A stretch of DNA of 64,000 nt from Eledone cirrhosa (taxonomy: Eukaryota), in NCBI GenBank assembly GCA_964016885.1, contig OZ024766.1:12400001-12464000 (forward strand). The letters run 5' to 3'. Positions 8,348 to 64,000 of this stretch are shown here, piece by piece; positions within the stretch are counted from its first letter, which is position 1, and every line of letters begins with the position of its first letter. The notes beneath the pieces were generated by a model. That model was not told the origin of the DNA, did not search any database, and saw only the letters and a list, made by a program, of their open reading frames with translations. The position numbers and the translations under genes were made by a program.

Positions 8348-9679
8348 GAACCACGTCTGGTTGCATTAGTGTCACACCTGTGGTGCCCCAGTAGGGTCTC
8401 TGGGGTGACAACAGACTGCACTATTGGGGACCCACGTCTGGTTGCATTAGTGTCACACCTGTGGTGCCCCAGTAGGGTCTCTGTGGTGACAACAGACTGC
8501 ACTAGTGGCACTACTACGTCTGGTTGCAATAGTGTCACACCTGTAGTGCCCCAGTAGGGTCTCTGGGGTGACAACAGACTGCACTATTGGGGACCCACGT
8601 CTGGTTGCATTAGTGTCACACCTGTGGTGCCCCAGTAGGGTCTCTGTGGTGACAACAGACTGCACTAGTGGCACTACTACGTCTGGTTGCATTAGTGTCA
8701 CACCTGTGGTACCACAGAGACCCTACTGGGGCACCACAGGTGTGACACTAATGCAACCAGACGTAGTACTGCCACTAGTGCAGTCTGTTGTCACCACAGA
8801 GACCCTACTGGGGCACCACAGGTGTGACACTAATGCAACCAGACGTGGTTCCCCACTAGTGCAGTCTGTTGTCACCACAGCGACCCTTCTGGGGCACCAC
8901 AGGTGTGACACTAATGCAACCAGACGTGGTTCCCCACTAGTGCAGTCTGTTGTCACCACAGAGACCCTTCTGGGGCACCACAGGTGTGACACTAATGCAA
9001 CCAGACGTGGTTCCCCACTAGTGCAGTCTGTTGTCACCACAGCGACCCTTCTGGGGCACCACAGGTGTGACACTAATGCAACCAGACGTGGGTCCCCAAT
9101 AGTGCAGTCTGTTGTCACCACAGAGGCCCTACTGGGGCACCACAGGTGTGACACTAATGCAACCAGACGTAGTAGGGCCACTAGTGCAGTCTGTTGTCAC
9201 CACAGAGGCCCTACTGGGGTACCACAACTGTGACACTAATGCAACCAGACGTGGTTCCCCACTAGTGCAGTCTGTTGTCACCACAGCGACCCTTCTGGGG
9301 CACCACAGGTGTGACACTAATGCAACCAGACGTGGTTCCCCACTAGTGCAGTCTGTTGTCACCACAGAGACCCTTCTGGGGCACCACAGGTGTGACACTA
9401 ATGCAACCAGACGTGGGTCCCCAATAGTGCAGTCTGTTGTCACCACAGCGACCCTTCTGGGGCACCACAGGTGTGACACTAATGCAACCAGACGTGGTTC
9501 CCCACTAGTGCAGTCTGTTGTCACCACAGAGACCCTTCTGGTGCACCACAGGTGTGACACTAATGCAACCAGACGTGGTTCCCCACTAGTGCAGTCTGTT
9601 GTCACCACAGAGACCCTACTGGGGCACTACAGGTGTGACACTAATGCAACCAGACGTAGTAGGGCCACTAGTGCAGTCT
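8348..9679. repeat. 81/82-bp minisatellite (~16 copies) that switches orientation at 8710/8711
   Basis: About 4.5 copies in one orientation (8348-8710) and ~12 reverse-complement copies (8711-9679); junction palindrome CTGTGGT|ACCACAG. Confidence 0.96.
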
Positions 9680-10400
9680 CTATTCTCCATCATGTGTAGA
9701 AGGGACCCTGTGTTGTGACCTGTCCAGTCTTTGATGTTGTCAGACCAGGATTTCATTGTCTACCTATTCTTTTACTATCCCCTGAACAATGGTTGCAAAA
9801 TAAAGATTTGTGGCTGAATATGTGACCATACCAAGCAAACTTCCATAAACTATCTTTATCCCATTAATTCTCCTCATTTAATAATCTTTCGTAGTGGAAC
9901 TTTCATGTTGCTTTCTTATCAGTGAGGACAAGTATGCCATTATTATCACAGACCCACTACTCCCCGATAATATCACAATATTCCTTGACACGCTGTTTGT
10001 AGCTGAATATATGACCATACCAGGCAAACTTCCATATTTTCCCCATCACAACGACAGGTTCTTGTCTCCCGGCATATTTGTTAACGCATTACCTGACAAA
10101 GCTGTTTGTTTTGTGTTGTGTGTATAAGGATGTGTTGCAACCTTCTGAAGGACTTGTGCTCTATGTAGATGTTTAACAGCCTTCTGAAAGACTTGTGCTC
10201 TGTGTAAGGGATATGTAGCAACCTTCTAAAGGACTTGTACTCTGTGTACAAGGATGTGTAGCAACCATCTGAAGGGCTTGTGCCCTGTTTGTAGATAAGG
10301 AGTTTTAGAACCCCATCACAACGAGTGGTTCCTGGCTCCCAGCATATTTGTTAACCTGACAAAGATGTTTGTTTTGTGCTGAGTGTACAAGGATGTGTTG
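9660..10400 (-). mobile_element. Degenerate RTE-clade LINE ORF C-terminal remnant with internal duplications
   Basis: Minus-strand peptides across frameshifts: QHKTNIFVR..NKYAGSQEPL, KFAWYGHI (twice), TIVQGIV, RIGRQ, KSWSDNIKDWTGHNTGSLLHMMENRD. These match the RTE pattern EHKTN..VR / KLxWFGHV / TILQG / GRQRKxWxDNIKEWTG. Confidence 0.85.
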
Positions 10401-13400
10401 CAACCTTCTGAAGGACTTGTGCCCTCTGTATGGGATATGTAGTAACCTTCTGAAGGACTTGTGCCCTGTGTACGAGATGTTTAGTAACCTTCTGAAGGAC
10501 TTGTGCCCTGTGTACGAGATGTTTAGTAACCTTCTGAAGGACTTGTGCCCTGTGTACGAAATGTTTAGTAACCTTCTGAAGGACTTGTGCCCTGTGTACG
10601 AGATGTTTAGTAACCTTCTGAAGGACTTGTGCCCTGTGTACGAGATGTTTAGTAACCTTCTGAAGGACTTGTGCCCTGTGTACGAAATGTTTAGTAACCT
10701 TCTGAAGGACTTGTGCCCTGTGTACGAGATGTTTAGTAACCTTCTGAAGGACTTGTGCCCTGTGTACGAGATGTTTAGTAACCTTCTGAAGGACTTGTGC
10801 CCTGTGTACGAGATGTTTAGTAACCTTCTGAAGGACTTGTGCCCTGTGTACGAGATGTTTAGTAACCTTCTGAAGGACTTGTGCCCTGTGTACGAGATGT
10901 TTAGTAACCTTCTGAAGGACTTGTGCCCTGTGTACGAAATGTTTAGTAACCTTCTGAAGGACGTGTGCCCTGTGTACGAGATGTTTAGTAACCTTCTGAA
11001 GGACTAGTGCCCTGTGTACGAAATGTTTAGTAACCTTCTGAAGGACTTGTGCCCTGTGTACGAGATGTTTAGTAACCTTCTGAAGGACTTGTGCCCTGTG
11101 TACGAGATGTTTAGTAACCTTCTGAAGGACGTGTGCCCTGTGTACGAGATGTTTAGTAACCTTCTGAAGGACTTGTGCCCTGTGTACGAGATGTTTAGTA
11201 ACCTTCTGAAGGACTTGTGCCCTGTGTACGAGATGTTTAGTAACCTTCTGAAGGACTTGTGCCCTGTGTACGAAATGTTTAGTAACCTTCTGAAGGACTT
11301 GTGCCCTGTGTACGAGATGTTTAGTAACCTTCTGAAGGACTTGTGCCCTGTGTACGAGATGTTTAGTAACCTTCTGAAGGACTTGTGCCCTGTGTACGAG
11401 ATGTTTAGTAACCTTCTGAAGGACTTGTGCCCTGTGTACGAGATGTTTAGTAACCTTCTGAAGGACTTGTGCCCTGTGTACGAGATGTTTAGTAACCTTC
11501 TGAAGGACTTGTGCCCTGTGTACGAGATGTTTAGTAACCTTCTGAAGGACTTATGCCCTGTGTACGAGATGTTTAGTAACCTTCTGAAGGACTTGTGCCC
11601 TGTGTACGAAATGTTTAGTAACCTTCTGAAGGACTTGTGCCCTGTGTACGAGATGTTTAGTAACCTTCTGAAGGACTTGTGCCCTGTGTACGAAATGTTT
11701 AGTAACCTTCTGAAGGACTTGTGCCCTGTGTACGAGATGTTTAGTAACCTTCTGAAGGACTTGTGCCCTGTGTACGAAATGTTTAGTAACCTTCTGAAGG
11801 ACTTGTGCCCTGTGTACGAGATGTTTAGTAACCTTCTGAAGGACTTGTGCCCTGTGTACGAGATGTTTAGTAACCTTCTGAAGGACTTGTGCCCTGTGTA
11901 CGAGATGTTTAGTAACCTTCTGAAGGACTTGTGCCCTGTGTACGAAATGTTTAGTAACCTTCTGAAGGACTTGTGCCCTGTGTACGAGATGTTTAGTAAC
12001 CTTCTGAAGGACTTGTGCTCTGTGTACGAGATGTTTAGTAACCTTCTGAAGGACTTGTGCCCTGTGTACGAGATGTTTAGTAACCTTCTGAAGGACTTGT
12101 GCCCTGTGTACGAAATGTTTAGTAACCTTCTGAAGGACTTGTGCCCTGTGTACGAGATGTTTAGTAACCTTCTGAAGGACTTGTGCCCTGTGTACGAGAT
12201 GTTTAGTAACCTTCTGAAGGACTTGTGCCCTGTGTACGAAATGTTTAGTAACCTTCTGAAGGACTTGTGCCCTGTGTACGAGATGTTTAGTAACCTTCTG
12301 AAGGACTTGTGCCCTGTGTACGAGATGTTTAGTAACCTTCTGAAGGACTTGTGCCCTGTGTACGAGATGTTTAGTAACCTTCTGAAGGACTTGTGCCCTG
12401 TGTACGAGATGTTTAGTAACCTTCTGAAGGACTTGTGCCCTGTGTACGAGATGTTTAGTAACCTTCGGAAGGACTTGTGCCCTGTGTACGAAATGTTTAG
12501 TAACCTTCTGAAGGACTTGTGCCCTGTGTACGAGATGTTTAGTAACCTTCTGAAGGACTTGTGCTCTGTGTACGAGATGTTTAGTAACCTTCTGAAGGAC
12601 TTGTGCTCTGTGTACGAGATGTTTAGTAACCTTCTGAAGGACTTGTGCCCTGTGTACGAGATGTTTAGTAACCTTCTGAAGGACTTGTGCCCTGTGTACG
12701 AGATGTTTAGTAACCTTCTGAAGGACTTGTGCCCTGTGTACGAGATGTTTAGTAACCTTCTGAAGGACTTGTGCCCTGTGTACGAGATGTTTAGTAACCT
12801 TCTGAAGGACTTGTGCCCTGTGTACGAAATGTTTAGTAACCTTCTGAAGGACTTGTGCCCTGTGTACGAGATGTTTAGTAACCTTCTGAAGGACTTGTGC
12901 CCTGTGTACGAGATGTTTAGTAACCTTCTGAAGGACTTGTGCCCTGTGTACGAGATGTTTAGTAACCTTCTGAAGGACTTGTGCCCTGTGTACGAGATGT
13001 TTAGTAACCTTCTGAAGGACTTGTGCCCTGTGTACGAGATGTTTAGTAACCTTCTGAAGGACTTGTGCCCTGTGTACGAAATGTTTAGTAACCTTCTGAA
13101 GGACTTGTGCCCTGTGTACGAGATGTTTAGTAACCTTCTGAAGGACTTGTGCCCTGTGTACGAAATGTTTAGTAACCTTCTGAAGGACTTGTGCCCTGTG
13201 TACGAGATGTTTAGTAACCTTCTGAAGGACTTGTGCCCTGTGTACGAGATGTTTAGTAACCTTCTGAAGGACTTGTGCCCTGTGTACGAGATGTTTAGTA
13301 ACCTTCTGAAGGACTTGTGCCCTGTGTACGAGATGTTTAGTAACCTTCTGAAGGACTTGTGCCCTGTGTACGAGATGTTTAGTAACCTTCTGAAGGACTT

Positions 13401-16400
13401 GTGCTCTGTGTACGAGATGTTTAGTAACCTTCTGAAGGACTTGTGCCCTGTGTACGAGATGTTTAGTAACCTTCTGAAGGACTTGTGCCCTGTGTACGAG
13501 ATGTTTAGTAACCTTCTGAAGGACTTGTGCCCTGTGTACGAGATGTTTAGTAACCTTCTGAAGGACTTGTGCCCTGTGTACGAGATGTTTAGTAACCTTC
13601 TGAAGGACTTGTGCCCTGTGTACGAGATGTTTAGTAACCTTCTGAAGGACTTGTGCCCTGTGTACGAGATGTTTAGTAACCTTCTGAAGGACTTGTGCCC
13701 TGTGTACGAGATGTTTAGTAACCTTCTGAAGGACTTGTGCCCTGTGTACGAGATGTTTAGTAACCTTCTGAAGGACTTGTGCCCTGTGTACGAGATGTTT
13801 AGTAACCTTCTGAAGGACTTGTGCCCTGTGTACGAGATGTTTAGTAACCTTCTGAAGGACTTGTGCCCTGTGTACGAGATGTTTAGTAACCTTCTGAAGG
13901 ACTTGTGCCCTGTGTACGAGATGTTTAGTAACCTTCTGAAGGACTTGTGCCCTGTGTACGAGATGTTTAGTAACCTTCTGAAGGACTTGTGCCCTGTGTA
14001 CGAGATGTTTAGTAACCTTCTGAAGGACTTGTGCCCTGTGTACGAGATGTTTAGTAACCTTCTGAAGGACTTGTGCTCTGTGTACGAGATGTTTAGTAAC
14101 CTTCTGAAGGACTTGTGCCCTGTGTACGAGATGTTTAGTAACCTTCTGAAGGACTTGTGCCCTGTGTACGAGATGTTTAGTAACCTTCTGAAGGACTTGT
14201 GCTCTGTGTACGAGATGTTTAGTAACCTTCTGAAGGACTTGTGCCCTGTGTACGAGATGTTTAGTAACCTTCTGAAGGACTTGTGCCCTGTGTACGAGAT
14301 GTTTAGTAACCTTCTGAAGGACTTGTGCCCTGTGTACGAGATGTTTAGTAACCTTCTGAAGGACTTGTGCCCTGTGTACGAGATGTTTAGTAACCTTCTG
14401 AAGGACTTGTGCTCTGTGTACGAGATGTTTAGTAACCTTCTGAAGGACTTGTGCCCTGTGTACGAGATGTTTAGTAACCTTCTGAAGGACTTGTGCCCTG
14501 TGTACGAGATGTTTAGTAACCTTCTGAAGGACTTGTGCCCTGTGTACGAGATGTTTAGTAACCTTCTGAAGGACTTGTGCCCTGTGTACGAGATGTTTAG
14601 TAACCTTCTGAAGGACTTGTGCCCTGTGTACGAGATGTTTAGTAACCTTCTGAAGGACTTGTGCCCTGTGTACGAGATGTTTAGTAACCTTCTGAAGGAC
14701 TTGTGCCCTGTGTACGAGATGTTTAGTAACCTTCTGAAGGACTTGTGCCCTGTGTACGAGATGTTTAGTAACCTTCTGAAGGACTTGTGCCTTGTGTACG
14801 AGATGTTTAGTAACTTTCTGAAGGACTTGTGCCCTGTGTACGAGATGTTTAGTAACCTTCTGAAGGACTTGTGCCCTGTGTACGAGATGTTTAGTAACCT
14901 TCTGAAGGACTTGTGCCCTGTGTACGAGATGTTTAGTAACCTTCTGAAGGACTTGTGCTCTGTGTACGAGATGTTTAGTAACCTTCTGAAGGACTTGTGC
15001 CCTGTGTACGAGATGTTTAGTAACCTTCTGAAGGACTTGTGCCCTGTGTACGAGATGTTTAGTAACCTTCTGAAGGACTTGTGCTCTGTGTACGAGATGT
15101 TTAGTAACCTTCTGAAGGACTTGTGCCCTGTGTACGAGATGTTTAGTAACCTTCTGAAGGACTTGTGCCCTGTGTACGAGATGTTTAGTAACCTTCTGAA
15201 GGACTTGTGCCCTGTGTACGAGATGTTTAGTAACCTTCTGAAGGACTTGTGCCCTGTGTACGAGATGTTTAGTAACCTTCTGAAGGACTTGTGCTCTGTG
15301 TACGAGATGTTTAGTAACCTTCTGAAGGACTTGTGCCCTGTGTACGAGATGTTTAGTAACCTTCTGAAGGACTTGTGCCCTGTGTACGAGATGTTTAGTA
15401 ACCTTCTGAAGGACTTGTGCCCTGTGTACGAGATGTTTAGTAACCTTCTGAAGGACTTGTGCCCTGTGTACGAGATGTTTAGTAACCTTCTGAAGGACTT
15501 GTGCCCTGTGTACGAGATGTTTAGTAACCTTCTGAAGGACTTGTGCCCTGTGTACGAGATGTTTAGTAACCTTCTGAAGGACTTGTGCCCTGTGTACGAG
15601 ATGTTTAGTAACCTTCTGAAGGACTTGTGCCCTGTGTACGAGATGTTTAGTAACCTTCTGAAGGACTTGTGCCCTGTGTACGAGATGTTTAGTAACCTTC
15701 TGAAGGACTTGTGCCCTGTGTACGAGATGTTTAGTAACCTTCTGAAGGACTTGTGCCCTGTGTACGAGATGTTTAGTAACCTTCTGAAGGACTTGTGCCC
15801 TGTGTACGAGATGTTTAGTAACCTTCTGAAGGACTTGTGCCCTGTGTACGAGATGTTTAGTAACCTTCTGAAGGACTTGTGCCCTGTGTACGAGATGTTT
15901 AGTAACCTTCTGAAGGACTTGTGCTCTGTGTACGAGATGTTTAGTAACCTTCTGAAGGACTTGTGCCCTGTGTACGAGAGGTTTAGTAACCTTCTGAAGG
16001 ACTTGTGCCCTGTGTACGAGATGTTTAGTAACCTTCTGAAGGACTTGTGCTCTGTGTACGAGATGTTTAGTAACCTTCTGAAGGACTTGTGCCCTGTGTA
16101 CGAGATGTTTAGTAACCTTCTGAAGGACTTGTGCCCTGTGTACGAGATGTTTAGTAACCTTCTGAAGGACTTGTGCCCTGTGTACGAGATGTTTAGTAAC
16201 CTTCTGAAGGACTTGTGCCCTGTGTACGAGATGTTTAGTAACCTTCTGAAGGACTTGTGCTCTGTGTACGAGATGTTTAGTAACCTTCTGAAGGACTTGT
16301 GCCCTGTGTACGAGATGTTTAGTAACCTTCTGAAGGACTTGTGCCCTGTGTACGAGATGTTTAGTAACCTTCTGAAGGACTTGTGCCCTGTGTACGAGAT

Positions 16401-19400
16401 GTTTAGTAACCTTCTGAAGGACTTGTGCCCTGTGTACGAGATGTTTAGTAACCTTCTGAAGGACTTGTGCCCTGTGTACGAGATGTTTAGTAACCTTCTG
16501 AAGGACTTGTGCCCTGTGTACGAGATGTTTAGTAACCTTCTGAAGGACTTGTGCCCTGTGTACGAGATGTTTAGTAACCTTCTGAAGGACTTGTGCCCTG
16601 TGTACGAGATGTTTAGTAACCTTCTGAAGGACTTGTGCCCTGTGTACGAGATGTTTAGTAACTTTCTGAAGGACTTGTGCCCTGTGTACGAGATGTTTAG
16701 TAACCTTCTGAAGGACTTGTGCCCTGTGTACGAGATGTTTAGTAACCTTCTGAAGGACTTGTGCCCTGTGTACGAGATGTTTAGTAACCTTCTGAAGGAC
16801 TTGTGCTCTGTGTACGAGATGTTTAGTAACCTTCTGAAGGACTTGTGCCCTGTGTACGAGATGTTTAGTAACCTTCTGAAGGACTTGTGCCCTGTGTACG
16901 AGATGTTTAGTAACCTTCTGAAGGACTTGTGCTCTGTGTACGAGATGTTTAGTAACCTTCTGAAGGACTTGTGCCCTGTGTACGAGATGTTTAGTAACCT
17001 TCTGAAGGACTTGTGCCCTGTGTACGAGATGTTTAGTAACCTTCTGAAGGACTTGTGCCCTGTGTACGAGATGTTTAGTAACCTTCTGAAGGACTTGTGC
17101 CCTGTGTACGAGATGTTTAGTAACCTTCTGAAGGACTTGTGCTCTGTGTACGAGATGTTTAGTAACCTTCTGAAGGACTTGTGCCCTGTGTACGAGATGT
17201 TTAGTAACCTTCTGAAGGACTTGTGCCCTGTGTATGGGATATGTAGCAACCTTCTGAAGGACTTGTGCTCTGTGTACGGGATGTTTAGTAACCTTCTGAA
17301 GGACTTGTGCCCTTTGTATGGGATATGTAGCAACCTTCTGAAGGACTTGTGCTCTGTGTACGAGATGTTTAGTAACCTTCTGAAGGACTTGTGCCCTGTG
17401 TACGAGATGTTTAGTAACCTTCTGAAGGACTTGTGCCCTGTGTACGAGATGTTTAGTAACCTTCTGAAGGACTTGTGCCCTGTGTACGAGATGTTTAGTA
17501 ACCTTCTGAAGGACTTGTGCCCTGTGTACGAGATGTTTAGTAACCTTCTGAAGGACTTGTGCCCTGTGTACGAGATGTTTAGTAACCTTCTGAAGGACTT
17601 GTGCCCTGTGTACGAGATGTTTAGTAACCTTCTGAAGGACTTGTGCCCTGTGTACGAGATGTTTAGTAACCTTCTGAAGGACTTGTGCCCTGTGTACGAA
17701 ATGTTTAGTAACCTTCTGAAGGACTTGTGCCCTGTGTACGAGATGTTTAGTAACCTTCTGAAGGACTTGTGCCCTGTGTACGAGATGTTTAGTAACCTTC
17801 GGAAGGACTTGTGCCCTGTGTACGAAATGTTTAGTAACCTTCTGAAGGACTTGTGCTCTGTGTACGAGATGTTTAGTAACCTTCTGAAGGACTTGTGCCC
17901 TGTGTACGAGATGTTTAGTAACCTTCTGAAGGACTTGTGCCCTGGTACGAAATGTTTAGTAACCTTCTGAAGGACTTGTGCCCTGTGTACGAGATGTTTA
18001 GTAACCTTCTGAAGGACTTGTGCCCTGTGTACGAGATGTTTAGTAACCTTCTGAAGGACTTGTGCCCTGCGTACGAAATGTTTAGTAACCTTCTGAAGGA
18101 CTTGTGCCCTGTGTACGAGATGTTTAGTAACCTTCTGAAGGACTTGTGCCCTGTGTACGAGATGTTTAGTAACCTTCTGAAGGACTTGTGCCCTGTGTAC
18201 GAGATGTTTAGCAATCTTCTGAAGGACTTGTGCTCTGTGTACGAGATGTTTAGCAACCTTCTGAAGGACTTGTGCCCTGTGTACGAGATGTTTAGTAACC
18301 TTCTGAAGGACTTGTGCCCTGTGTACGAGATGTTTAGCAACCTTCTGAAGGACTTGTGCTCTGTGTACGAGATGTTTAGCAACCTTCTGAAGGACTTGTG
18401 CCCTGTGTACGAGATGTTTAGTAACCTTCTGAAGGACTTGTGCCCTGTGTACGAGATATTTAGTAACCTTCTGAAGGACTTGTGCCCTGTGTACGAGATG
18501 TTTAGTAACCTTCTGAAGGACTTGTGCTCTGTGTACGAGATGTTTAGTAACCTTCTGAAGGACTTGTGCCCTGTGTACGAGATGTTTAGTAACCTTCTGA
18601 AGGACTTGTGCTCTGTGTACGAGATGTTTAGTAACCTTCTGAAGGACTTGTGCTCTGTGTACGAGATGTTTAGTAACCTTCTGAAGGACTTGTGCCCTGT
18701 GTACGAGATGTTTAGTAACCTTCTGAAGGACTTGTGCCCTGTGTACGAGATGTTTAGTAACCTTCTGAAGGACTTGTGCCCTGTGTACGAGATGTTTAGT
18801 AACCTTCTGAAGGACTTGTGCCCTGTGTACGAGATGTTTAGTAACCTTCTGAAGGACTTGTGCCCTGTGTACGAGATGTTTAGTAACCTTCTGAAGGACT
18901 TGTGCCCTGTGTACGAGATGTTTAGTAACCTTCTGAAGGACTTGTGCCCTGTGTACGAGATGTTTAGTAACCTTCTGAAGGACTTGTGCCCTGTGTACGA
19001 GATGTTTAGTAACCTTCTGAAGGACTTGTGCCCTGTGTACGAGATGTTTAGTAACCTTCTGAAGGACTTGTGCTCTGTGTACGAGATGTTTAGTAACCTT
19101 CTGAAGGACTTGTGCCTGTGTACGAGATGTTTAGTAACCTTCTGAAGGACTTGTGCCCTGTGTGCGAGATGTTTAGTAACCTTCTGAAGGACTTGTGCTC
19201 TGTGTACGAGATGTTTAGTAACCTTCTGAAGGACTTGTGCCCTGTGTACGAGATGTTTAGTAACCTTCTGAAGGACTTGTGCCCTGTGTACGAGATGTTT
19301 AGTAACCTTCTGAAGGACTTGTGCCCTGTGTACGAGATGTTTAGTAACCTTCTGAAGGACTTGTGCCCTGTGTACGAGATGTTTAGTAACCTTCTGAAGG

Positions 19401-22400
19401 ACTTGTGCCCTGTGTACGAGATGTTTAGTAACCTTCTGAAGGACTTGTGCCCTGTGTACGAGATGTTTAGTAACCTTCTGAAGGACTTGTGCCCTGTGTA
19501 CGAGATGTTTAGTAACCTTCTGAAGGACTTGTGCTCTGTGTACGAGATGTTTAGTAACCTTCTGAAGGACTTGTGCCCTGTGTACGAGATGTTTAGTAAC
19601 CTTCTGAAGGACTTGTGCCCTGTGTACGAGATGTTTAGTAACCTTCTGAAGGACTTGTGCTCTGTGTACGAGATGTTTAGTAACCTTCTGAAGGACTTGT
19701 GCCCTGTGTACGAGATGTTTAGTAACCTTCTGAAGGACTTGTGCCCTGTGTACGAGATGTTTAGTAACCTTCTGAAGGACTTGTGCCCTGTGTACGAGAT
19801 GTTTAGTAACCTTCTGAAGGACTTGTGCCCTGTGTACGAGATGTTTAGTAACCTTCTGAAGGACTTGTGCTCTGTGTACGAGATGTTTAGTAACCTTCTG
19901 AAGGACTTGTGCCCTGTGTACGAGATGTTTAGTAACCTTCTGAAGGACTTGTGCCCTGTGTACGAGATGTTTAGTAACCTTCTGAAGGACTTGTGCCCTG
20001 TGTACGAGATGTTTAGTAACCTTCTGAAGGACTTGTGCCCTGTGTACGAGATGTTTAGTAACCTTCTGAAGGACTTGTGCCCTGTGTACGAGATGTTTAG
20101 TAACCTTCTGAAGGACTTGTGCCCTGTGTACGAGATGTTTAGTAACCTTCTGAAGGACTTGTGCCCTGTGTACGAGATGTTTAGTAACCTTCTGAAGGAC
20201 TTGTGCCCTGTGTACGAGATGTTTAGTAACCTTCTGAAGGACTTGTGCCCTGTGTACGAGATGTTTAGTAACTTTCTGAAGGACTTGTGCCCTGTGTACG
20301 AGATGTTTAGTAACCTTCTGAAGGACTTGTGCCCTGTGTACGAGATGTTTAGTAACCTTCTGAAGGACTTGTGCCCTGTGTACGAGATGTTTAGTAACCT
20401 TCTGAAGGACTTGTGCTCTGTGTACGAGATGTTTAGTAACCTTCTGAAGGACTTGTGCCCTGTGTACGAGATGTTTAGTAACCTTCTGAAGGACTTGTGC
20501 CCTGTGTACGAGATGTTTAGTAACCTTCTGAAGGACTTGTGCTCTGTGTACGAGATGTTTAGTAACCTTCTGAAGGACTTGTGCCCTGTGTACGAGATGT
20601 TTAGTAACCTTCTGAAGGACTTGTGCCCTGTGTACGAGATGTTTAGTAACCTTCTGAAGGACTTGTGCCCTGTGTACGAGATGTTTAGTAACCTTCTGAA
20701 GGACTTGTGCCCTGTGTACGAGATGTTTAGTAACCTTCTGAAGGACTTGTGCTCTGTGTACGAGATGTTTAGTAACCTTCTGAAGGACTTGTGCCCTGTG
20801 TACGAGATGTTTAGTAACCTTCTGAAGGACTTGTGCCCTGTGTATGGGATATGTAGCAACCTTCTGAAGGACTTGTGCTCTGTGTACGGGATGTTTAGTA
20901 ACCTTCTGAAGGACTTGTGCCCTTTGTATGGGATATGTAGCAACCTTCTGAAGGACTTGTGCTCTGTGTACGAGATGTTTAGTAACCTTCTGAAGGACTT
21001 GTGCCCTGTGTACGAGATGTTTAGTAACCTTCTGAAGGACTTGTGCCCTGTGTACGAGATGTTTAGTAACCTTCTGAAGGACTTGTGCCCTGTGTACGAG
21101 ATGTTTAGTAACCTTCTGAAGGACTTGTGCCCTGTGTACGAGATGTTTAGTAACCTTCTGAAGGACTTGTGCCCTGTGTACGAGATGTTTAGTAACCTTC
21201 TGAAGGACTTGTGCCCTGTGTACGAGATGTTTAGTAACCTTCTGAAGGACTTGTGCCCTGTGTACGAGATGTTTAGTAACCTTCTGAAGGACTTGTGCCC
21301 TGTGTACGAAATGTTTAGTAACCTTCTGAAGGACTTGTGCCCTGTGTACGAGATGTTTAGTAACCTTCTGAAGGACTTGTGCCCTGTGTACGAGATGTTT
21401 AGTAACCTTCGGAAGGACTTGTGCCCTGTGTACGAAATGTTTAGTAACCTTCTGAAGGACTTGTGCTCTGTGTACGAGATGTTTAGTAACCTTCTGAAGG
21501 ACTTGTGCCCTGTGTACGAGATGTTTAGTAACCTTCTGAAGGACTTGTGCCCTGTGTACGAAATGTTTAGTAACCTTCTGAAGGACTTGTGCCCTGTGTA
21601 CGAGATGTTTAGTAACCTTCTGAAGGACTTGTGCCCTGTGTACGAGATGTTTAGTAACCTTCTGAAGGACTTGTGCCCTGCGTACGAAATGTTTAGTAAC
21701 CTTCTGAAGGACTTGTGCCCTGTGTACGAGATGTTTAGTAACCTTCTGAAGGACTTGTGCCCTGTGTACGAGATGTTTAGTAACCTTCTGAAGGACTTGT
21801 GCCCTGTGTACGAGATGTTTAGCAATCTTCTGAAGGACTTGTGCTCTGTGTACGAGATGTTTAGCAACCTTCTGAAGGACTTGTGCCCTGTGTACGAGAT
21901 GTTTAGTAACCTTCTGAAGGACTTGTGCCCTGTGTACGAGATGTTTAGCAACCTTCTGAAGGACTTGTGCTCTGTGTACGAGATGTTTAGCAACCTTCTG
22001 AAGGACTTGTGCCCTGTGTACGAGATGTTTAGTAACCTTCTGAAGGACTTGTGCCCTGTGTACGAGATGTTTAGTAACCTTCTGAAGGACTTGTGCCCTG
22101 TGTACGAGATGTTTAGTAACCTTCTGAAGGACTTGTGCTCTGTGTACGAGATGTTTAGTAACCTTCTGAAGGACTTGTGCCCTGTGTACGAGATGTTTAG
22201 TAACCTTCTGAAGGACTTGTGCTCTGTGTACGAGATGTTTAGTAACCTTCTGAAGGACTTGTGCTCTGTGTACGAGATGTTTAGTAACCTTCTGAAGGAC
22301 TTGTGCCCTGTGTACGAGATGTTTAGTAACCTTCTGAAGGACTTGTGCCCTGTGTACGAGATGTTTAGTAACCTTCTGAAGGACTTGTGCCCTGTGTACG

Positions 22401-23945
22401 AGATGTTTAGTAACCTTCTGAAGGACTTGTGCCCTGTGTACGAGATGTTTAGTAACCTTCTGAAGGACTTGTGCCCTGTGTACGAGATGTTTAGTAACCT
22501 TCTGAAGGACTTGTGCCCTGTGTACGAGATGTTTAGTAACCTTCTGAAGGACTTGTGCCCTGTGTACGAGATGTTTAGTAACCTTCTGAAGGACTTGTGC
22601 CCTGTGTACGAGATGTTTAGTAACCTTCTGAAGGACTTGTGCCCTGTGTACGAGATGTTTAGTAACCTTCTGAAGGACTTGTGCTCTGTGTACGAGATGT
22701 TTAGTAACCTTCTGAAGGACTTGTGCCTGTGTACGAGATGTTTAGTAACCTTCTGAAGGACTTGTGCCCTGTGTGCGAGATGTTTAGTAACCTTCTGAAG
22801 GACTTGTGCTCTGTGTACGAGATGTTTAGTAACCTTCTGAAGGACTTGTGCCCTGTGTACGAGATGTTTAGTAACCTTCTGAAGGACTTGTGCCCTGTGT
22901 ACGAGATGTTTAGTAACCTTCTGAAGGACTTGTGCCCTGTGTACGAGATGTTTAGTAACCTTCTGAAGGACTTGTGCCCTGTGTACGAGATGTTTAGTAA
23001 CCTTCTGAAGGACTTGTGCTCTGTTTACGAGATGTTTAGTAACCTTCTGAAGGACTTGTGCCCTGTGTACGAGATGTTTAGTAACCTTCTGAAGGACTTG
23101 TGCCCTGTGTATGGGATATGTAGCAACCTTCTGAAGGACTTGTGCTCTGTGTACGAGATGTTTAGTAACCTTCTGAAGGACTTGTGCCCTCTGTATGGGA
23201 TATGTAGCAACCTTCTGAAGGACTTGTGCTCTGTGTACGAGATGTTTAGTAACCTTCTGAAGGACTTGTGCCCTGTGTACGAGATGTTTAGTAACCTTCT
23301 GAAGGACTTGTGCTCTGTGTACGAGATGTTTAGTAACCTTCTGAAGGACTTGTGCCCTGTGTACGAGATGTTTAGTAACCTTCTGAAGGACTTGTGCCCT
23401 GTGTACGAGATGTTTAGTAACCTTCTGAAGGACTTGTGCTCTGTGTACGAGATGTTTAGTAACCTTCTGAAGGACTTGTGCCCTGTGTACGAGATGTTTA
23501 GTAACCTTCTGAAGGACTTGTGCCCTGTGTACGAGATGTTTAGTAACCTTCTGAAGGACTTGTGCCCTGTGTACGAGATGTTTAGTAACCTTCTGAAGGA
23601 CTTGTGCCCTGTGTACGAGATGTTTAGTAACCTTCTGAAGGACTTGTGCTCTGTGTACGAGATGTTTAGTAACCTTCTGAAGGACTTGTGCCCTGTGTAC
23701 GAGATGTTTAGTAACCTTCTGAAGGACTTGTGCCCTGTGTACGAGATGTTTAGTAACCTTCTGAAGGACTTGTGCCCTCTGTATGGGATATGTAGCAACC
23801 TTCTGAAGGACTTGTGCCCTGTGTACGAGATGTTTAGTAACCTTCTGAAGGACTTGTGCCCTCTGTATGGGATATGTAGCAACCTTCTGAAGGACTTGTG
23901 CCCTGTGTACGAAATGTTTAGTAACCTTCTGAAGGACTTGTGCTC
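10374..23945. repeat. 42-bp satellite (~320 copies, 13.6 kb; GTACGAGATGTTTAGTAACCTTCTGAAGGACTTGTGCCCTGT)
   Basis: 42-bp period, highly homogeneous; 1-bp deletions near 17944, 19116 and 22727; about four diverged units also at ~10125-10290. Confidence 0.99.
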
Positions 23946-24000
23946 AAATGACAGGATTCTTTGTTCCATGTCAGCTGCGAGAGTCCACCTCTCACACATG
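23938..24000 (-). mobile_element. RTE-clade LINE ORF segment leading into the 42-bp array
   Basis: Minus strand CERWTLAADMEQRILSFEHKSFRRLLNISYT matches RTE YGCExWTL...xRIxAFExKCxRxLLxISY. Confidence 0.85.
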
Positions 24001-24327
24001 GAAAGACAGTGGCCCCACTTGAGGTGTCTATGGCCATTGTCATTGGAAAACCTCCATGCTTCCTGAAATTCACCAACACTATACCTGACACACCCCCCCC
24101 CTCCGTACACACGCACACATGTACCTGTGTGTATTTCATGACTCATACACTGTTCACTTTCCTCACATTTGTACATTACCCTATGTACTATACACCTTTG
24201 ATGAGTTGTAGTGCACCTGAGCACTGTACACAAAAATTTCATTATTATTATATCATTATATGTCTGGTTGTCTGAGTCCACCTCTCACACATGGAAATAC
24301 GGTGGCCCCACTTGAGGTGTCTTTGGC
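23981..24327. repeat. Dispersed 54-bp direct repeat (23981-24034 and 24274-24327)
   Basis: GAGTCCACCTCTCACACATGGAAA(G/T)AC(A/G)GTGGCCCCACTTGAGGTGTCT(A/T)TGGC; 3 mismatches, offset 293 bp. Confidence 0.9.
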
Positions 24328-24430
24328 GAGGTACGGTTCAGACTGTAATGTCCCCTCCTCTCCCTTTCGTTGCTTGCTTGATCCCTTTTTTCCATTTCTG
24401 TTCCTTTAATAGAGTCTTTTGTTTCTAGTT

Positions 24431-24628
<198 letters not shown>

Positions 24629-24688
24629 TTGTATGTGCATATATTTTAATATATTTAATAGACTGTTTATATTATTAGATACTGCTCA

Positions 24689-24870
24689 GGGTGGATTGGC
24701 AGTATCGGTAGAAGGTCGGACGCCATGCTTTCCAGCATAGTTACGTCCCTTTACGATCTGAGTTCAGTTTCCGCCGAGGTTGACTTTGCCTTTCATCCTT
24801 ACGGGGTAGATAAAATAAAGTACCAGTAATACACTGGGTAATTGCTGGCCTTGTGCCAAAAGTAGAAACA
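24689..24870 (+). mobile_element. tRNA-derived SINE with Deu/Nin-like core, octopod-type, with 18-bp target-site duplication
   Basis: A-box-like TGGCAGTATCGG, B-box-like GAGTTCAGTTTCC, core GAGGTTGACTTTGCCTTTCATCCTTACGGGGTAGATAAAATAAAGTACCAG, tail CCTTGTGCCAAAAGTAGAAACA. Flanked by ATTATTAGATACTGCTCA at 24671-24688 and 24871-24888. Family assignment is from recalled similarity. Confidence 0.85.
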
Positions 24871-24959
24871 ATTATTAGATACTGCTCAATAAATATTTAT
24901 ATAATATCAATATCTTTTCATGACATTTTGTAAGATTTTCTATATTAAATATGTTTGAT

Positions 24960-27900
24960 TCTACCTGTAAATGTAAGACATACTCTACCTGTAAATGTAA
25001 GACATACTCTACCTGTAAATGTAAGACATACTCTACCTGTAAATGTAGGACATACTCTACCTGTAAATGTAAGACATACTCTACCTGTAAATATAAGACA
25101 TACTCTACCTGTAAGACATACTCTACCTGTAAATGTAAGACATACTCTACCTGTAAATATAAGACATACTCTACCTGTAAATGTAGGACATACTCTACCT
25201 GTAAATGTAAGACATACTCTACCTGTAAATATAAGACATACTCTACCTGTAAGACATACTCTACCTGTAAATGTAAGACATACTCTACCTGTAAATATAA
25301 GACATACTCTACCTGTAAATATAAGACATACTCTACCTGTAAATGTAAGACATACTCTACCTGTAAATGTAAGACATACTCTACCTGTAAATGTAAGACA
25401 TACTCTACCTGTAAATGTAAGACATACTCTACCTGTAAGACATACTCTACCTGTAAATATAAGACATACTCTACCTGTAAATATAAGACATACTCTACTT
25501 GTAAATATAAGACATACTCTACCTGTAAATATAAGACATACTCTACCTGTAAATATAAGACATACTCTACCTGTAAATGTAAGACATACTCTACCTGTAA
25601 ATATAAGACATACTCTACCTGTAAATATAAGACATACTCTACCTGTAAATGTAAGACATACTCTACCTGTAAATATAAGACATACTCTACCTGTAAATGT
25701 AAGACATACTCTACCTGTAAATGTAAGACATACTCTACCTGTAAATGTAAGACATACTCTACCTGTAAGACATACTCTACCTGTAAATATAAGACATACT
25801 CTACCTGTAAATATAAGACATACTCTACCTGTAAATGTAAGACATACTCTACCTGTAAATATAAGACATACTCTACCTGTAAATATAAGACATACTCTAC
25901 CTGTAAATATAAGACATACTCTACCTGTAAATGTAAGACATACTCTACCTGTAAATATAAGACATACTCTACCTGTAAATATAAGACATACTCTACCTGT
26001 AAATGTAAGACATACTCTACCTGTAAATGTAAGACATACTCTACCTGTAAATATAAGACATACTCTACCTGTAAATATAAGACATACTCTACCTGTAAAT
26101 GTAAGACATACTCTACCTGTAAATATAAGACATACTCTACCTGTAAATGTAAGACATACTCTACCTGTAAATATAAGACATACTCTACCTGTAAATGTAA
26201 GACATACTCTACCTGTAAATATAAGACATACTCTACCTGTAAATGTAAGACATACTCTACCTGTAAATATAAGACATACTCTACCTGTAAATGTAAGACA
26301 TACTCTACCTGTAAATATAAGACATACTCTACCTGTAAATGTAGGACATACTCTACCTGTAAATGTAAGACATACTCTACCTGTAAATATAAGACATACT
26401 CTACCTGTAAATGTAAGACATACTCTACCTGTAAATGTAGGACATACTCTACCTGTAAATATAAGACATACTCTACCTGTAAATGTAAGACATACTCTAC
26501 CTGTAAATGTAAGACATACTCTACCTGTAAATATAAGACATACTCTACCTGTAAATATAAGACATACTCTACCTGTAAATATAAGACATACTCTACCTGT
26601 AAATGTAAGACATACTCTACCTGTAAATGTAGGACATACTCTACCTGTAAATGTAAGACATACTCTACCTGTAAGACATACTCTACCTGTAAATATAAGA
26701 CATACTCTACCTGTAAATGTAAGACATACTCTACCTGTAAATATAAGACATACTCTACCTGTAAATATAAGACATACTCTACCTGTAAATGTAGGACATA
26801 CTCTACCTGTAAATATAAGACATACTCTACCTGTAAATGTAAGACATACTCTACCTGTAAATGTAAGACATACTCTACCTGTAAATATAAGACATACTCT
26901 ACCTGTAAATATAAGACATACTCTACCTGTAAATATAAGACATACTCTACCTGTAAATATAAGACATACTCTACCTGTAAATGTAAGACATACTCTACCT
27001 GTAAATATAAGACATACTCTACCTGTAAGACATACTCTACCTGTAAATATAAGACATACTCTACCTGTAAATATAAGACATACTCTACCTGTAAATATAA
27101 GACATACTCTACCTGTAAATATAAGACATACTCTACCTGTAAGACATACTCTACCTGTAAATATAAGACATACTCTACCTGTAAATATAAGACATACTCT
27201 ACCTGTAAATGTAAGACATACTCTACCTGTAAATATAAGACATACTCTACCTGTAAATATAAGACATACTCTACCTGTAAATGTAAGACATACTCTACCT
27301 GTAAATATAAGACATACTCTACCTGTAAATGTAAGACATACTCTACCTGTAAATGTAAGACATACTCTACCTGTAAGACATACTCTACCTGTAAATGTAA
27401 GACATACTCTACCTGTAAGACATACTCTACCTGTAAATATAAGACATACTCTACCTGTAAATATAAGACATACTCTACCTGTAAATATAAGACATACTCT
27501 ACCTGTAAATGTAAGACATACTCTACCTGTAAATATAAGACATACTCTACCTGTAAATATAAGACATACTCTACCTGTAAATGTAAGACATACTCTACCT
27601 GTAAATGTAAGACATACTCTACCTGTAAATATAAGACATACTCTACCTGTAAATATAAGACATACTCTACCTGTAAATGTAAGACATACTCTACCTGTAA
27701 ATATAAGACATACTCTACCTGTAAATATAAGACATACTCTACCTGTAAATGTAAGACATACTCTACCTGTAAATGTAAGACATACTCTACCTGTAAATAT
27801 AAGACATACTCTACCTGTAAATATAAGACATACTCTACCTGTAAATGTAAGACATACTCTACCTGTAAATATAAGACATACTCTACCTGTAAATGTAAGA

Positions 27901-30679
27901 CATACTCTACCTGTAAATATAAGACATACTCTACCTGTAAATGTAAGACATACTCTACCTGTAAATATAAGACATACTCTACCTGTAAATGTAGGACATA
28001 CTCTACCTGTAAATGTAAGACATACTCTACCTGTAAATGTAAGACATACTCTACCTGTAAATGTAAGACATACTCTACCTGTAAATATAAGACATACTCT
28101 ACCTGTAAATATAAGACATACTCTACCTGTAAATGTAAGACATACTCTACCTGTAAATATAAGACATACTCTACCTGTAAATGTAAGACATACTCTACCT
28201 GTAAATATAAGACATACTCTACCTGTAAATGTAAGACATACTCTACCTGTAAATGTAAGACATACTCTACCTGTAAATATAAGACATACTCTACCTGTAA
28301 ATGTAGGACATACTCTACCTGTAAATATAAGACATACTCTACCTGTAAATATAAGACATACTCTACCTGTAAATGTAAGACATACTCTACCTGTAAATAT
28401 AAGACATACTCTACCTGTAAATATAAGACATACTCTACCTGTAAATATAAGACATACTCTACCTGTAAATATAAGACATACTCTACCTGTAAATGTAAGA
28501 CATACTCTACCTGTAAATATAAGACATACTCTACCTGTAAATGTAGGACATACTCTACCTGTAAATATAAGACATACTCTACCTGTAAATATAAGACATA
28601 CTCTACCTGTAAATGTAAGACATACTCTACCTGTAAATATAAGACATACTCTACCTGTAAATGTAAGACATACTCTACCTGTAAATGTAAGACATACTCT
28701 ACCTGTAAATATAAGACATACTCTACCTGTAAATGTAAGACATACTCTACCTGTAAATATAAGACATACTCTACCTGTAAATGTAAGACATACTCTACCT
28801 GTAAATATAAGACATACTCTACCTGTAAATGTAGGACATACTCTACCTGTAAATATAAGACATACTCTACCTGTAAATATAAGACATACTCTACCTGTAA
28901 ATGTAAGACATACTCTACCTGTAAATATAAGACATACTCTACCTGTAAATGTAGGACATACTCTACCTGTAAATATAAGACATACTCTACCTGTAAATAT
29001 AAGACATACTCTACCTGTAAATGTAAGACATACTCTACCTGTAAATATAAGACATACTCTACCTGTAAATGTAAGACATACTCTACCTGTAAATATAAGA
29101 CATACTCTACCTGTAAATGTAAGACATACTCTACCTGTAAATATAAGACATACTCTACCTGTAAATATAAGACATACTCTACCTGTAAATATAAGACATA
29201 CTCTACCTGTAAATGTAAGACATACTCTACCTGTAAATATAAGACATACTCTACCTGTAAATGTAGGACATACTCTACCTGTAAATATAAGACATACTCT
29301 ACCTGTAAATATAAGACATACTCTACCTGTAAATGTAAGACATACTCTACCTGTAAATATAAGACATACTCTACCTGTAAATATAAGACATACTCTACCT
29401 GTAAATATAAGACATACTCTACCTGTAAATATAAGACATACTCTACCTGTAAATGTAAGACATACTCTACCTGTAAATATAAGACATACTCTACCTGTAA
29501 ATGTAAGACATACTCTACCTGTAAATGTAAGACATACTCTACCTGTAAGACATACTCTACCTGTAAATATAAGACATACTCTACCTGTAAATATAAGACA
29601 TACTCTACCTGTAAATATAAGACATACTCTACCTGTAAATGTAAGACATACTCTACCTGTAAATGTAAGACATACTCTACCTGTAAATGTAAGACAAACT
29701 CTACCTGTAAATGTAAGACATACTCTACCTGTAAGACATACTCTACCTGTAAATATAAGACATACTCTACCTGTAAATATAAGACATACTCTACCTGTAA
29801 ATATAAGACATACTCTACCTGTAAATGTAAGACATACTCTACCTGTAAATATAAGACATACTCTACCTGTAAATATAAGACATACTCTACCTGTAAATAT
29901 AAGACATACTCTACCTGTAAATATAAGACATACTCTACCTGTAAATATAAGACATACTCTACCTGTAAATATAAGACATACTCTACCTGTAAATATAAGA
30001 CATACTCTACCTGTAAATATAAGACATACTCTACCTGTAAATATAAGACATACTCTACCTGTAAATATAAGACATACTCTACCTGTAAATATAAGACATA
30101 CTCTACCTGTAAATATAAGACATACTCTACCTGTAAATGTAAGACATACTCTACCTGTAAATGTAAGACATACTCTACCTGTAAATATAAGACATACTCT
30201 ACCTGTAAATATAAGACATACTCTACCTGTAAATGTAAGACATACTCTACCTGTAAATATAAGACATACTCTACCTGTAAATGTAAGACATACTCTACCT
30301 GTAAATATAAGACATACTCTACCTGTAAATGTAAGACATACTCTACCTGTAAATATAAGACATACTCTACCTGTAAATATAAGACATACTCTACCTGTAA
30401 ATATAAGACATACTTTACCTGTAAATGTAAGACATACTCTACCTGTAAATATAAGACATACTCTACCTGTAAGACATACTCTACCTGTAAATATAAGACA
30501 TACTCTACCTGTAAGACATACTTTACCTGTAAATATAAGACATACTCTACCTGTAAATGTAAGACATACTCTACCTGTAAATGTAAGACATACTCTACCT
30601 GTAAATATAAGACATACTCTACCTGTAAATGTAAGACATACTCTACCTGTAAATGTAAGACATACTCTACCTGTAAATA
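24960..30679. repeat. 24-bp satellite (~240 copies, 5.7 kb; TCTACCTGTAAAT(A/G)TAAGACATAC) with 18-bp deletion variants
   Basis: 24-bp period; A/G dimorphism; AGG variant; recurrent 6-bp deletion giving CCTGTAAGAC. Confidence 0.99.
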
Positions 30680-30684
30680 ATTAA

Positions 30685-30785
30685 ATAGTTGGCTTTGTTG
30701 GAAAACTGATGGAGTTTCTTTTCCATAAGATATTCAGCTTTACTTTGGCAGAAGTGACCAGGGTGAGTCTTAGCAGTATCTCCTT
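30685..30785 (-). mobile_element. RTE-clade LINE ORF segment leading out of the 40-bp array
   Basis: Minus strand reads without interruption KEILLRLTLVTSAKVKLNILWKRNSISFPTK, matching the post-RT RTE pattern EIxxRIxxATSAMxKLxxIWKxxxISFxTK. Confidence 0.8.
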
Positions 30786-33700
30786 TGGCAGAAGTGACCA
30801 GAGTGAGTCTTAGCAGTATCTCCTTTGGCAGAAGTGACCAGGGTGAGTCTTAGCAGTATCTCCTTTGACAGAAGTGACCAGGGTGAGTCTTAGCAGTACC
30901 TCCTTTGGCAGAAGTGACCAGGGTGAGTCTTAGCAGTACCTCCTTTGGCAGAAGTGGCCAGGGTGAGTCTTAGCAGTATCTCCTTTGGCAGAAGTGACCA
31001 GGGTGAGTCTTAGCACTATCTCCTTTGGCAGAAGTGACCAGGGTGAGTCTTAGCAGTACCTCCTTTGGCAGAAGTGACCAGGGTGAGTCTTAGCAGTATC
31101 TCCTTTGGCAGAAGTGACCAGGGTGAGTCTTAGCAGTATCTCCTTTGGCAGAAGTGACCAGGGTGAGTCTTAGCAGTATCTTGGCAGAAGTGACCAGGGT
31201 GAGTCTTAGCAGTACCTCCTTTGACAGAAGTGACCAGGGTGAGTCTTAGCAGTATCTCCTTTGGCAGAAGTGACCAGGGTGAGTCTTAGCAGTACCTCCT
31301 TTGGCAGAAGTGACCAGGGTGAGTCTTAACAGTACCTCCTTTAGCAGAAGTGACCAGGGTGAGTCTTAGCAGTGTCTCCTTTGGCAGAAGTGACCAGGGT
31401 GAATCTTAGCAGTATCTCCTTTGGCAGAAGTGACCAGGGTGAGTCTTAGCAGTACCTCCTTTGGCAGAAGTGACCAGGGTGAGTCTTAGCAGTACCTCCT
31501 TTGGCAGAAGTGACCAGGGTGAGTCTTAGCAGTACCTCCTTTGGCAGAAGTGACCAGGGTGAGTCTTAGCAGTATCTCCTTTGACAGAAGTGACCAGGGT
31601 GAGTCTTAGCAGTACCTCCTATGGCAGAAGTGACCAGGGTGAGTCTTAGCAGTACCTCCTTTTGCAGAAGTGACCAAGTGAGTCTTAGCAGTACCTCCTT
31701 TGGCAGAAGTGACCAGGGTGAGTCTTAGCAGTACCTCCTTTGGCAGAAGTGACCAGGGTGAGTCTTAGCAGTATCTCCTTTGGCAGAAGTGACCAGGGTG
31801 AGTCTTAGCAGTATCTCCTTTGGCAGAAGTGACCAGGGTGAGTCTTAGCAGTATCTTGGCAGAAGTGACCAGGGTGAGTCTTAGCAGTACCTCCTTTGAC
31901 AGAAGTGACCAGGGTGAGTCTTAGCAGTATCTCCTTTGGCAGAAGTGACCAGGGTGAGTCTTAGCAGTACCTCCTTTGGCAGAAGTGACCAGGGTGAGTC
32001 TTAGCAGTACCTCATTTGGCAGAAGTGACCAGGGTGAGTCTTAGCAGTACCTCCTTTTGCAGAAGTGACCAGGGTGAGTCTTAGCAGTACCTCCTTTGGC
32101 AGAAGTGACCAGGGTGAGTCTTAGCAGTACCTCCTTTGGCAGAAGTGACCAGGGTGAGTCTTAGCAGTATCTCCTTTGACAGAAGTGACCAGGGTGAGTC
32201 TTAGCAGTACCTCCTTTGGCAGAAGTGACCAGGGTGAGTCTTAGCAGTACCTCCTTTGGCAGAAGTGACCAGGGTGAGTCTTAGCAGTACCTCCTTTTGC
32301 AGAAGTGACCAGGGTGAGTCTTAGCAGTACCTCCTTTGGCAGAAGTGACCAGGGTGAGTCTTAGCAGTATCTCCTTTGGCAGAAGTGACCAGGGTGAGTC
32401 TTAGCAGTATCTCCTTTGGCAGAAGTGACCAGGGTGAGTCTTAGCACTATCTCCTTTGGCAGAAGTGACCAGGGTGAGTCTTAGCAGTACCTCCTTTGGC
32501 AGAAGTGACCAGGGTGAGTCTTAGCAGTATCTCCTTTGGCAGAAGTGACCAGGGTGAGTCTTAGCAGTACCTCCTTTGGCAGAAGTCACCAGGGTGAGTC
32601 TTAGCAGTATCTCCTTTGGCAGAAGTGACCAGGGTGAGTCTTAGCACTATCTCGTTTGACAGAAGTGACCAGGGTGAGTCTTAGCAGTACCTCCTTTGGC
32701 AGAAGTCACCAGGGTGAGTCTTAGCAGTACCTCCTTTGGCAGAAGTGACCAGGGTGAGTCTTAGCAGTATCTCCTTTGGCAGAAGTGACCAGGGTGAGTC
32801 TTAGCAGTACCTCCTTTGGCAGAAGTGACCAGGGTGAGTCTTAGCAGTACCTCCTTTGGCAGAAGTGACCAGGGTGAGTCTTAGCAGTACCTCCTTTGGC
32901 AGAAGTGACCAGGGTGAGTCTTAGCAGTATCTCCTTTGACAGAAGTGACCAGGGTGAGTCTTAGCAGTACCTCCTTTGGCAGAAGTGACCAGGGTGAGTC
33001 TTAGCAGTACCTCCTTTGGCAGAAGTGACCAGGGTGAGTCTTAGCAGTATCTCCTTTGGCAGAAGTGACCAGGGTGAGTCTTAGCAGTACCTCCTTTGGC
33101 AGAAGTGACCAGGGTGAGTCTTAGCAGTATCTCCTTTGGCAGAAGTGACCAGGGTGAGTCTTAGCAGTATCTCCTTTGGCAGAAGTGACCAGGGTGAGTC
33201 TTAGCAGTATCTTGGCAGAAGTGACCAGGGTGAGTCTTAGCAGTACCTCCTTTGACAGAAGTGACCAGGGTGAGTCTTAGCAGTGTCTCCTTTGGCAGAA
33301 GTGACCAGGGTGAGTCTTAGCAGTACCTCCTTTGGCAGAAGTGACCAGGGTGAGTCTTAGCAGTATCTCCTTTGGCAGAAGTGACCAGGGTGAGTCTTAG
33401 CAGTATCTCCTTTGGCAGAAGTGACCAGGGTGAGTCTTAGCAGTACCTCCTTTGGCAGAAGTGACCAGGGTGAGTCTTAACAGTACCTCCTTTGGCAGAA
33501 GTGACCAGGGTGAGTCTTAGCAGTGTCTCCTTTGGCAGAAGTGACCAGGGTGAATCTTAGCAGTATCTCCTTTGGCAGAAGTGACCAGGGTGAGTCTTAG
33601 CAGTACCTCCTTTGGCAGAAGTGACCAGGGTGAGTCTTAGCAGTACCTCCTTTGGCAGAAGTGACCAGGGTGAGTCTTAGCAGTACCTCCTTTGGCAGAA

Positions 33701-63700: not shown

Positions 63701-64000
63701 CCAGGGTGAGTCTTAGCAGTACCTCCTTTGGCAGAAGTGACCAGGGTGAGTCTTAGCACTATCTCTTTTGGCAGAAGTGACCAGGGTGAGCCTTAGCAGT
63801 ATCTCCTTTGGCAGAAGTGACCAGGGTGAGTCTTAGCAGTACCTCCTTTGACAGAAGTGACCAGGGTGAGTCTTAGCACTATCTCCTTTGGCAGAAATGA
63901 CCAGGGTGAGTCTTAGCAGTACCTCCTTTGGCAGAAGTGACCAGGGTGAGTCTTAGCACTATCTCCTTTGGCAGAAGTGACCAGGGTGATTCTTAGCAGT
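30743..64000. repeat. 40-bp satellite (>830 copies, >33 kb, runs off window; TCCTTTGGCAGAAGTGACCAGGGTGAGTCTTAGCAGTA(T/C)C) with 36-bp deletion variants
   Basis: 40-bp period throughout; 4-bp deletion variant GTATCTTGGC; multi-kb higher-order duplications. Confidence 0.99.

Follow-up and report, generated by a model that had tools for sequence, protein, structure and literature searches.

A 42-bp satellite array in Eledone cirrhosa that probably expanded in situ from 14 codons of a decayed RTE-like ORF

We describe a tandem array of 323 units of 42 bp, located at 10382..23945 on the minus strand of a 64,000-nucleotide stretch of the Eledone cirrhosa genome (contig OZ024766.1, positions 12,400,001 to 12,464,000; hereafter the window), which lies within the decayed open reading frame (ORF) of an RTE-like non-LTR (lacking long terminal repeats) retrotransposon. 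The array most probably arose by the repetition, in place, of a 14-codon interval of this ORF, likely seeded by microhomology and likely block-amplified by unequal exchange later; we assign this reading a probability of roughly 75%. The in-register position of the array, its colinear flanks, the motif spacing, the staged divergence of the units and the block duplication are all directly visible. The birth of a satellite is seldom observed while parental sequence still flanks it, and here one locus displays the parent and the seed together with a short, old array and a long, young one.

The 42-bp array and its ends

The heptamer TTGTGCT is present at both ends of the array (10374-10380 and 23938-23944), as a first-pass annotation made from the sequence alone had stated. 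On the minus strand it reads AGCACAA and lies inside E-H-K codons at the entry (23938..23944; ...RILS-F-E-H-K) and inside Q-H-K codons at the first exit (10374..10380; T-Q-H-K-T-N), the codons that the same annotation had named. The entry consists of CERWTLAADMEQRILSF followed by EHK and the exit of QHKTN, so that the array ends fall on a paired E/Q-H-K motif. The 13,564 bp between the two TTGTGCT copies correspond to 323 units, a net 2 bp less than 323 × 42. When the minus strand is cut from 23945, 319 units are 42 bp long, three are 41 bp and the last one is 43 bp; because this exit-adjacent unit has 43 bp, the exit QHK is read in a shifted frame.

The array is long and homogeneous, as is typical of classical satellite DNA: within 13.6 kb, 226 of the 323 units are identical to the consensus, and the mean is 0.51 differences per unit. 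The heptamer forms part of the unit, in which it appears as AGCACAA in 49/323 units and as GGCACAA in 270/323, which means that the seed heptamer has been lost from the bulk of the array. Diverged edge units around a homogeneous core had also been described in the first-pass annotation, and this pattern holds in part. Ten of the 323 units show at least 5 differences from the consensus, or eight after the duplicated block (see below) is collapsed, and 6 of these 8 lie in the outer 20 units per side (p = 3.6e-4). However, the outermost entry unit is of the core type A (2 differences), and diverged units also occur inside (72, 74, 158 and 160); type B units are likewise present in the interior.

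A coding function of the repeat was rejected. A coding repeat under selection is at odds with three one-base deletions, two stop codons, a broken flanking ORF and 6 synonymous types among 16 substitution types, and the stop-free run of 2,708 codons follows from an in-frame, stop-free unit. No function is implied for the array. A look-alike search with the repeat protein reached a best score of 0.77 and gave no lead.

The parent ORF

To characterize the flanks, a 34-residue piece of the entry was used in a protein search, which matched 47 proteins; a profile built from 12 of these proteins and three window pieces gave 4,328 matches, the best 120 of which were listed. The named proteins among those listed come from gastropods, amphioxus and a sea cucumber and are either uncharacterised or annotated as endonuclease-reverse transcriptases; RVT_1 is present in P0050 and P0052, the closest relatives. 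The entry flank (23946..23996, minus strand) shares 57-66% identity with the region of the relatives downstream of the reverse transcriptase (RT), and its DNA aligns to L001, an unexpanded, decayed and distant DNA relative. This post-RT C-terminus is homologous to RT-bearing non-LTR proteins, as would be expected of an RTE-clade retrotransposon; the label 'RTE' for this C-terminus is provisional.

The relatives map in order on the minus strand, to 30785-30693, 23996-23892, 10124-9984 and 9842-9619. An ORF fragment of ~0.6 kb is thus interrupted by arrays and by ~1 kb of other DNA at 23997-24959. Upstream of the entry lies the piece VKLNILWKRNSISFPTK (30693..30742, minus strand), and the C-terminus (KFAWYGH...KSWSDNIKDWTG...RD; 9619..9847, minus strand) is broken by stops and frameshifts. 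RTE elements have one ORF with apurinic/apyrimidinic (AP) endonuclease and RT domains, and a short 3′ untranslated region with repeats of 3-5 nt (PMC1291365). In the element described here, the AP endonuclease and RT domains would lie beyond 64000, past a 40-bp array; its 3′ end is replaced by an 81-bp array, and L001 has a short GAA run after its ORF.

Both the relatives' proteins and the L001 DNA show that the flanks are colinear, single-copy parent sequence, as in the direct-repeat model of minisatellite origin of Haber and Louis (1998; as summarised in PMC6947457 and PMC3389668). The unit translates to the exact interval that the relatives have once between these flanks, which bears out the earlier view that 14 codons of an RTE-like ORF gave rise to the array on the spot. 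The insertion of a pre-existing satellite from elsewhere into the element is hardly credible on this evidence, and no observation in its favour was found. Phage and plasmid collections, a weak control for animal sequence, also contain no match.

A word-based protein search with a 40-residue entry piece gave no matches, which is weak evidence. Five RTE-side window translations, at least two of them off-frame or across frameshifts, matched no Pfam family, and Rfam returned only (TA)n-driven matches below gathering scores over 23940-24970.

The paired motif and the age of the match

To place the two motif sites in the family, 137 of 164 relatives were anchored; the other 27 were dropped because they lack the anchor motif or end early. 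The two sites are 14 residues apart in 127/137 anchored relatives. The C-terminus of the clade contains, at the protein level, an imperfect internal repeat, R-I-x-x-x-E-x-K, whose two copies are offset by 14 residues. At this lag, I is repeated in 97, E in 84 and K in 84 of the 137 relatives, and the 8-residue entry motif has a mean self-identity of 2.31, versus at most 1.09 at the other lags from 5 to 30. The first-pass definition of the unit as the interval between the two matches agrees with this spacing and with the 323 units, apart from the 43 bp of the exit-adjacent unit. In the same C-terminal region, P0001 and P0045 contain exact internal duplications (lags 28 and 51), which may be natural or products of assembly.

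EHK is the commonest exit triplet (48/137 relatives). To rank the relatives by proximity to the window, the 109 anchored proteins that match both downstream segments were scored while the array and the entry EHK were masked and the exit QHK was unmasked. The entry EHK is present in 4 of the 8 closest relatives versus 7/109 overall (p = 4e-4), and EHK occurs at both sites in 3 of these 8. L001 aligns through the entry, a single unit and the exit; each site contains GAGCA, and the distance between them is 43 bp in this decayed copy. These data support the existence of a match of at least 5 bp before the array, and a pre-existing match of 6-8 bp in the host family is likely. The L001 sequence (2001-2895) comprises a decayed non-LTR element of animal type and, after it, a long (AATC)n run. 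It lies on a contig of a bacterial metagenome-assembled genome and is probably host DNA in the bin.

Any tandem array leaves its leftover fraction at both ends; therefore, the question is whether 7 bp exceeds the overlap at an arbitrary junction. Among 650,430 arbitrary junctions with periods of 20-100, drawn from 8.5 kb of non-array DNA (the 64-kb window and L001), overlaps of at least 5, 6 and 7 bp have frequencies of 6.2e-3, 1.9e-3 and 5.8e-4, respectively. The same 8.5 kb contains 44 exact pairs of at least 7 bp at those distances, or 5.2 per kb. The 7-bp junction is informative, yet such seeds are everywhere. The main junction has the 5-10 bp direct repeat expected of a Haber-Louis minisatellite (7 bp), and a second exit has 6/7.

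Several observations weigh against the main reading. Across the clade the entry EHK is uncommon (9/137), and EHK at both sites is rare (5/137). Both window exits have Q, which is found in 7/137 relatives, whereas the relatives mostly have E or D. The second exit matches only 6/7, and both exit-adjacent units are 43 bp, so the present exit interval is not 42 bp. The match shared with L001 is only 5 bp. Since the exit codons were unmasked in the ranking, only the entry-site enrichment is free of circularity. As the entry unit belongs to the core type, conversion may have extended to the edge of the array. A 36-bp array in a neighbouring Helitron and a 78-bp duplication, described below, overlap by only 2 bp at their junctions, which indicates that long microhomology is not required here.

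Four of these observations (the 6/7 match at the second exit, the core-type entry unit, the 5 bp shared with L001 and the 2-bp junction overlaps) are what an alternative would draw on. In it the array also expanded in place, but its first duplication was guided by a match of 2-5 bp or by no match at all, and conversion from array units into the ends later brought the identity to 7 bp. We consider this alternative unlikely. F-E-H-K at the entry is already present in the closest relatives and E-H-K is the commonest exit triplet, and conversion from the predominant GGCACAA units would erase the match, not create it.

Unit lineages, the older array and the block duplication

The main array contains three lineages that were absent from the first-pass annotation: A (core, LNISYT), B (9 units, LHIPY) and C (the last unit, 43 bp, of the type that adjoins both exits), which are separated by 5-8 of 42 bases (12-19%). 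An older array of four units (10119..10285, minus strand; 43, 42, 39 and 43 bp, of types C, B, A-like and C), also new, lies beyond the first exit segment (QHKTN...EPLVVMG; 10312..10381, minus strand). It is followed by a second copy of the exit segment (10040..10118, minus strand; 45-62% identity to relatives), whose site at 10111-10117 reads AACACAA (TTGTGTT on the plus strand). Copy 1 carries a 7-bp deletion relative to copy 2; with their adjoining C units, the two copies are identical at 103/113 aligned bases and differ by this 7-bp gap. The small C, B, A-like, C array may be read as a relic of an early state. The founding duplication had been said to be readable from the sequence; since three lineages and a duplicated exit segment intervene, we infer the founding event instead of reading it directly.

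An internal tandem block duplication, likewise not previously noted, spans 15590..22979 on the minus strand (ends approximate), with a period of 86 units (3610-3611 bp). Units 24-113 are repeated 86 units further on, and 87 of these 90 units match at that lag. Stretches of 1,964 and 950 bp recur without a mismatch at the block period, and the two copies have a 1-bp homopolymer deletion in common, as would be expected if the assembly had laid down the 86-unit block twice and thereby inflated the array. We regard such an error as improbable: 3/90 units differ between the block copies, and human variable number tandem repeat alleles with block duplications of 45-50 units are known (PMC8327921). 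The array ends and the origin of the array are unaffected either way.

A further alternative is that retrotransposition made or carried the repeats, by template jumps of the reverse transcriptase or through a master RTE copy that already held short arrays. One element holds arrays of 40, 42 and 81 bp and duplications of 41, 54 and ~113 bp, and arrays inherited from the LTR12 and L1PA consensus sequences are known (PMC3389668). In contrast, the 14-residue duplication occurs in 0/164 RTE-like proteins, arrays are also present in the Helitron ORF and in non-RTE DNA, and the units diverged in stages, which makes this origin very unlikely.

Proposed origin and growth of the array

The C-terminus of the clade provides the starting point, with R-I-x-x-x-E-x-K repeated at 14 residues. 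With E-H-K at both sites in the host family, a short direct repeat at a distance of 42 bp would have arisen. The two E/Q-H-K runs, likely sharing 6-8 bases, could then have misaligned once, during slippage or microhomology-guided repair, and so have duplicated the 42-bp interval. To judge from the divergence of the units, a short array probably passed through a long quiet phase and diverged into types A, B and C, after which the last unit and the exit segment would have been duplicated once to leave the 4-unit relic. Type A, the lineage of the entry-end unit, would finally have swept to ~310 near-identical units, partly via the 86-unit (3.6-kb) duplication. The block duplication itself is observed, unequal exchange is its presumed mechanism, and the amplification was likely much later than the seed.

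Because the seed is common (~5 per kb), the rare step is the amplification. The amplification looks like a property of the region, since it hit at least three intervals of the RTE-like element and one of the neighbouring Helitron. Since arrays have started in two unrelated elements, some with long microhomology and others without it, this one window suggests that the region and not the seed is limiting. The locus therefore separates seeding, which is common, from amplification, which is rare and here apparently regional.

A broader joint claim would make the locus a satellite nursery, in which a regional process turns any dead transposon into arrays, three or four separate expansions, each in register, enlarged a ~0.6-kb RTE 3′ fragment to more than 50 kb, and the clade-conserved R-I-x-x-x-E-x-K pair turns the 42-bp interval into a recurrent, predictable seed, which would be expanded independently in other copies and species. 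We put this forward tentatively and regard it, in its entirety, as rather unlikely. If other copies have expanded the same interval, satellite monomers could be predicted from motif repetition in a transposon protein, and counting across the genome would be a direct test of what limits satellite emergence.

Comparison with known systems

A microhomology-flanked array derived from a transposable element (TE) follows a known mechanism, the Haber-Louis route, which has been described in human transposons, and a single case is ordinary. In human, 300/7,276 TE-derived repeats are flanked by direct repeats of 5-20 bp, most of 7 bp (PMC3389668). As in those minisatellites, the unit here corresponds to the stretch that separates short direct repeats within a transposon. 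Unlike the human Alu-derived cases, which average ~2.3-2.4 units (PMC3389668), the array here has 323, its seed is part of a motif pair encoded by a non-LTR ORF, and one short fragment gave rise to three arrays. In S. pombe, tandem duplications of 55-92 bp form between microhomology pairs of 5-8 bp, which are abundant and commoner in native genes than in synonymous shuffles, and there are local hot spots (bioRxiv 10.1101/2020.03.03.972455). Those duplications are single and reversible, whereas the large amplification here is a second process.

Satellites derived from ORF2 of long interspersed nuclear elements (LINEs) include chicken HinfI (CR1) and Phodopus PROsat (L1) (PMC9659126). As here, their monomers are related to non-LTR coding sequence; in contrast to them, the array here is still embedded between its parental flanks. 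The 'TE graveyard' model (PMC12628747), in which degraded TE remnants in a repeat-dense region yield new tandem monomers, resembles the situation in the window. However, it concerns composite monomers and Helitron central arrays, whereas simple in-register slices of a decayed ORF are seen here. The term 'RTE' was not found in the main text of the review PMC9659126, and none of four repeat terms is present in PMC13218726. A literature search over titles and the starts of abstracts, covering few subscription journals, returned no minisatellite in an RTE ORF and no case of several long arrays from one short element, which is weak evidence of novelty.

Other arrays and features of the window

Tandem arrays cover 57,574 of the 64,000 bases of the window (90%). 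The longest, a 40-bp array of more than 830 units (>33 kb; 30743..64000, minus strand), runs off the window and derives from the upstream ORF interval KEILLRLTLVTSAK; its unit translates to the KEIxxRLxxAxSA interval of the family. Its exit lies on a T-S-A motif, and the family often has T-S-A 13 codons after a similar one. Its entry end is outside the window, and 44 of 818 parsed units are 36-bp deletion variants. The 81-bp array (8350..9679, no strand assigned) starts in the last codons of the ORF and contains a fold-back inversion near 8704-8717.

A 24-bp array (24960..30679, no strand assigned) lies where the family has LxKSLVxSILLY. Derivation of its unit from the RTE-like element was supported neither by a profile test (p = 0.11) nor by DNA comparison with the 54-bp duplicate described below (p = 0.33-0.42). 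The ends of this array overlap by 13 bp, and its flanks are of different origin.

The RTE-like fragment is neighboured by a Helitron at 1-5560 (PF14214 and PF05970), whose matches are 48-65% identical across many invertebrates (Octopus vulgaris, 55%). Its Rep/helicase ORF contains an in-frame 36-bp array of 52 copies (1794-3666; junction overlap of 2 bp), which repeats a 12-codon interval that is single in Helitron relatives (34/120 matched the pattern). The stretches 6232-6639 and 6997-8105 contain two 37-bp arrays (~4.4 and ~30 copies) and the perfect 78-bp duplication, with its 2-bp overlap.

A 148-bp insert (9848-9995) is placed between 41-bp direct repeats (93% identical; span 9807-10036). 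Its translation has no match in Pfam and may resemble the endonuclease-to-RT linker of another LINE family. One 10-mer is found at the edge of this insert (9993-10002) and in the linker that re-enters the small array (10285-10294), a possible mark of template switching. A ~180-bp insertion like a short interspersed nuclear element (SINE), which may resemble octopod SINEs, lies between 18-bp direct repeats at 24671-24888. A 54-bp duplication (23981-24034 and 24274-24327; 94% identical) includes the CERWT codons of the entry flank.

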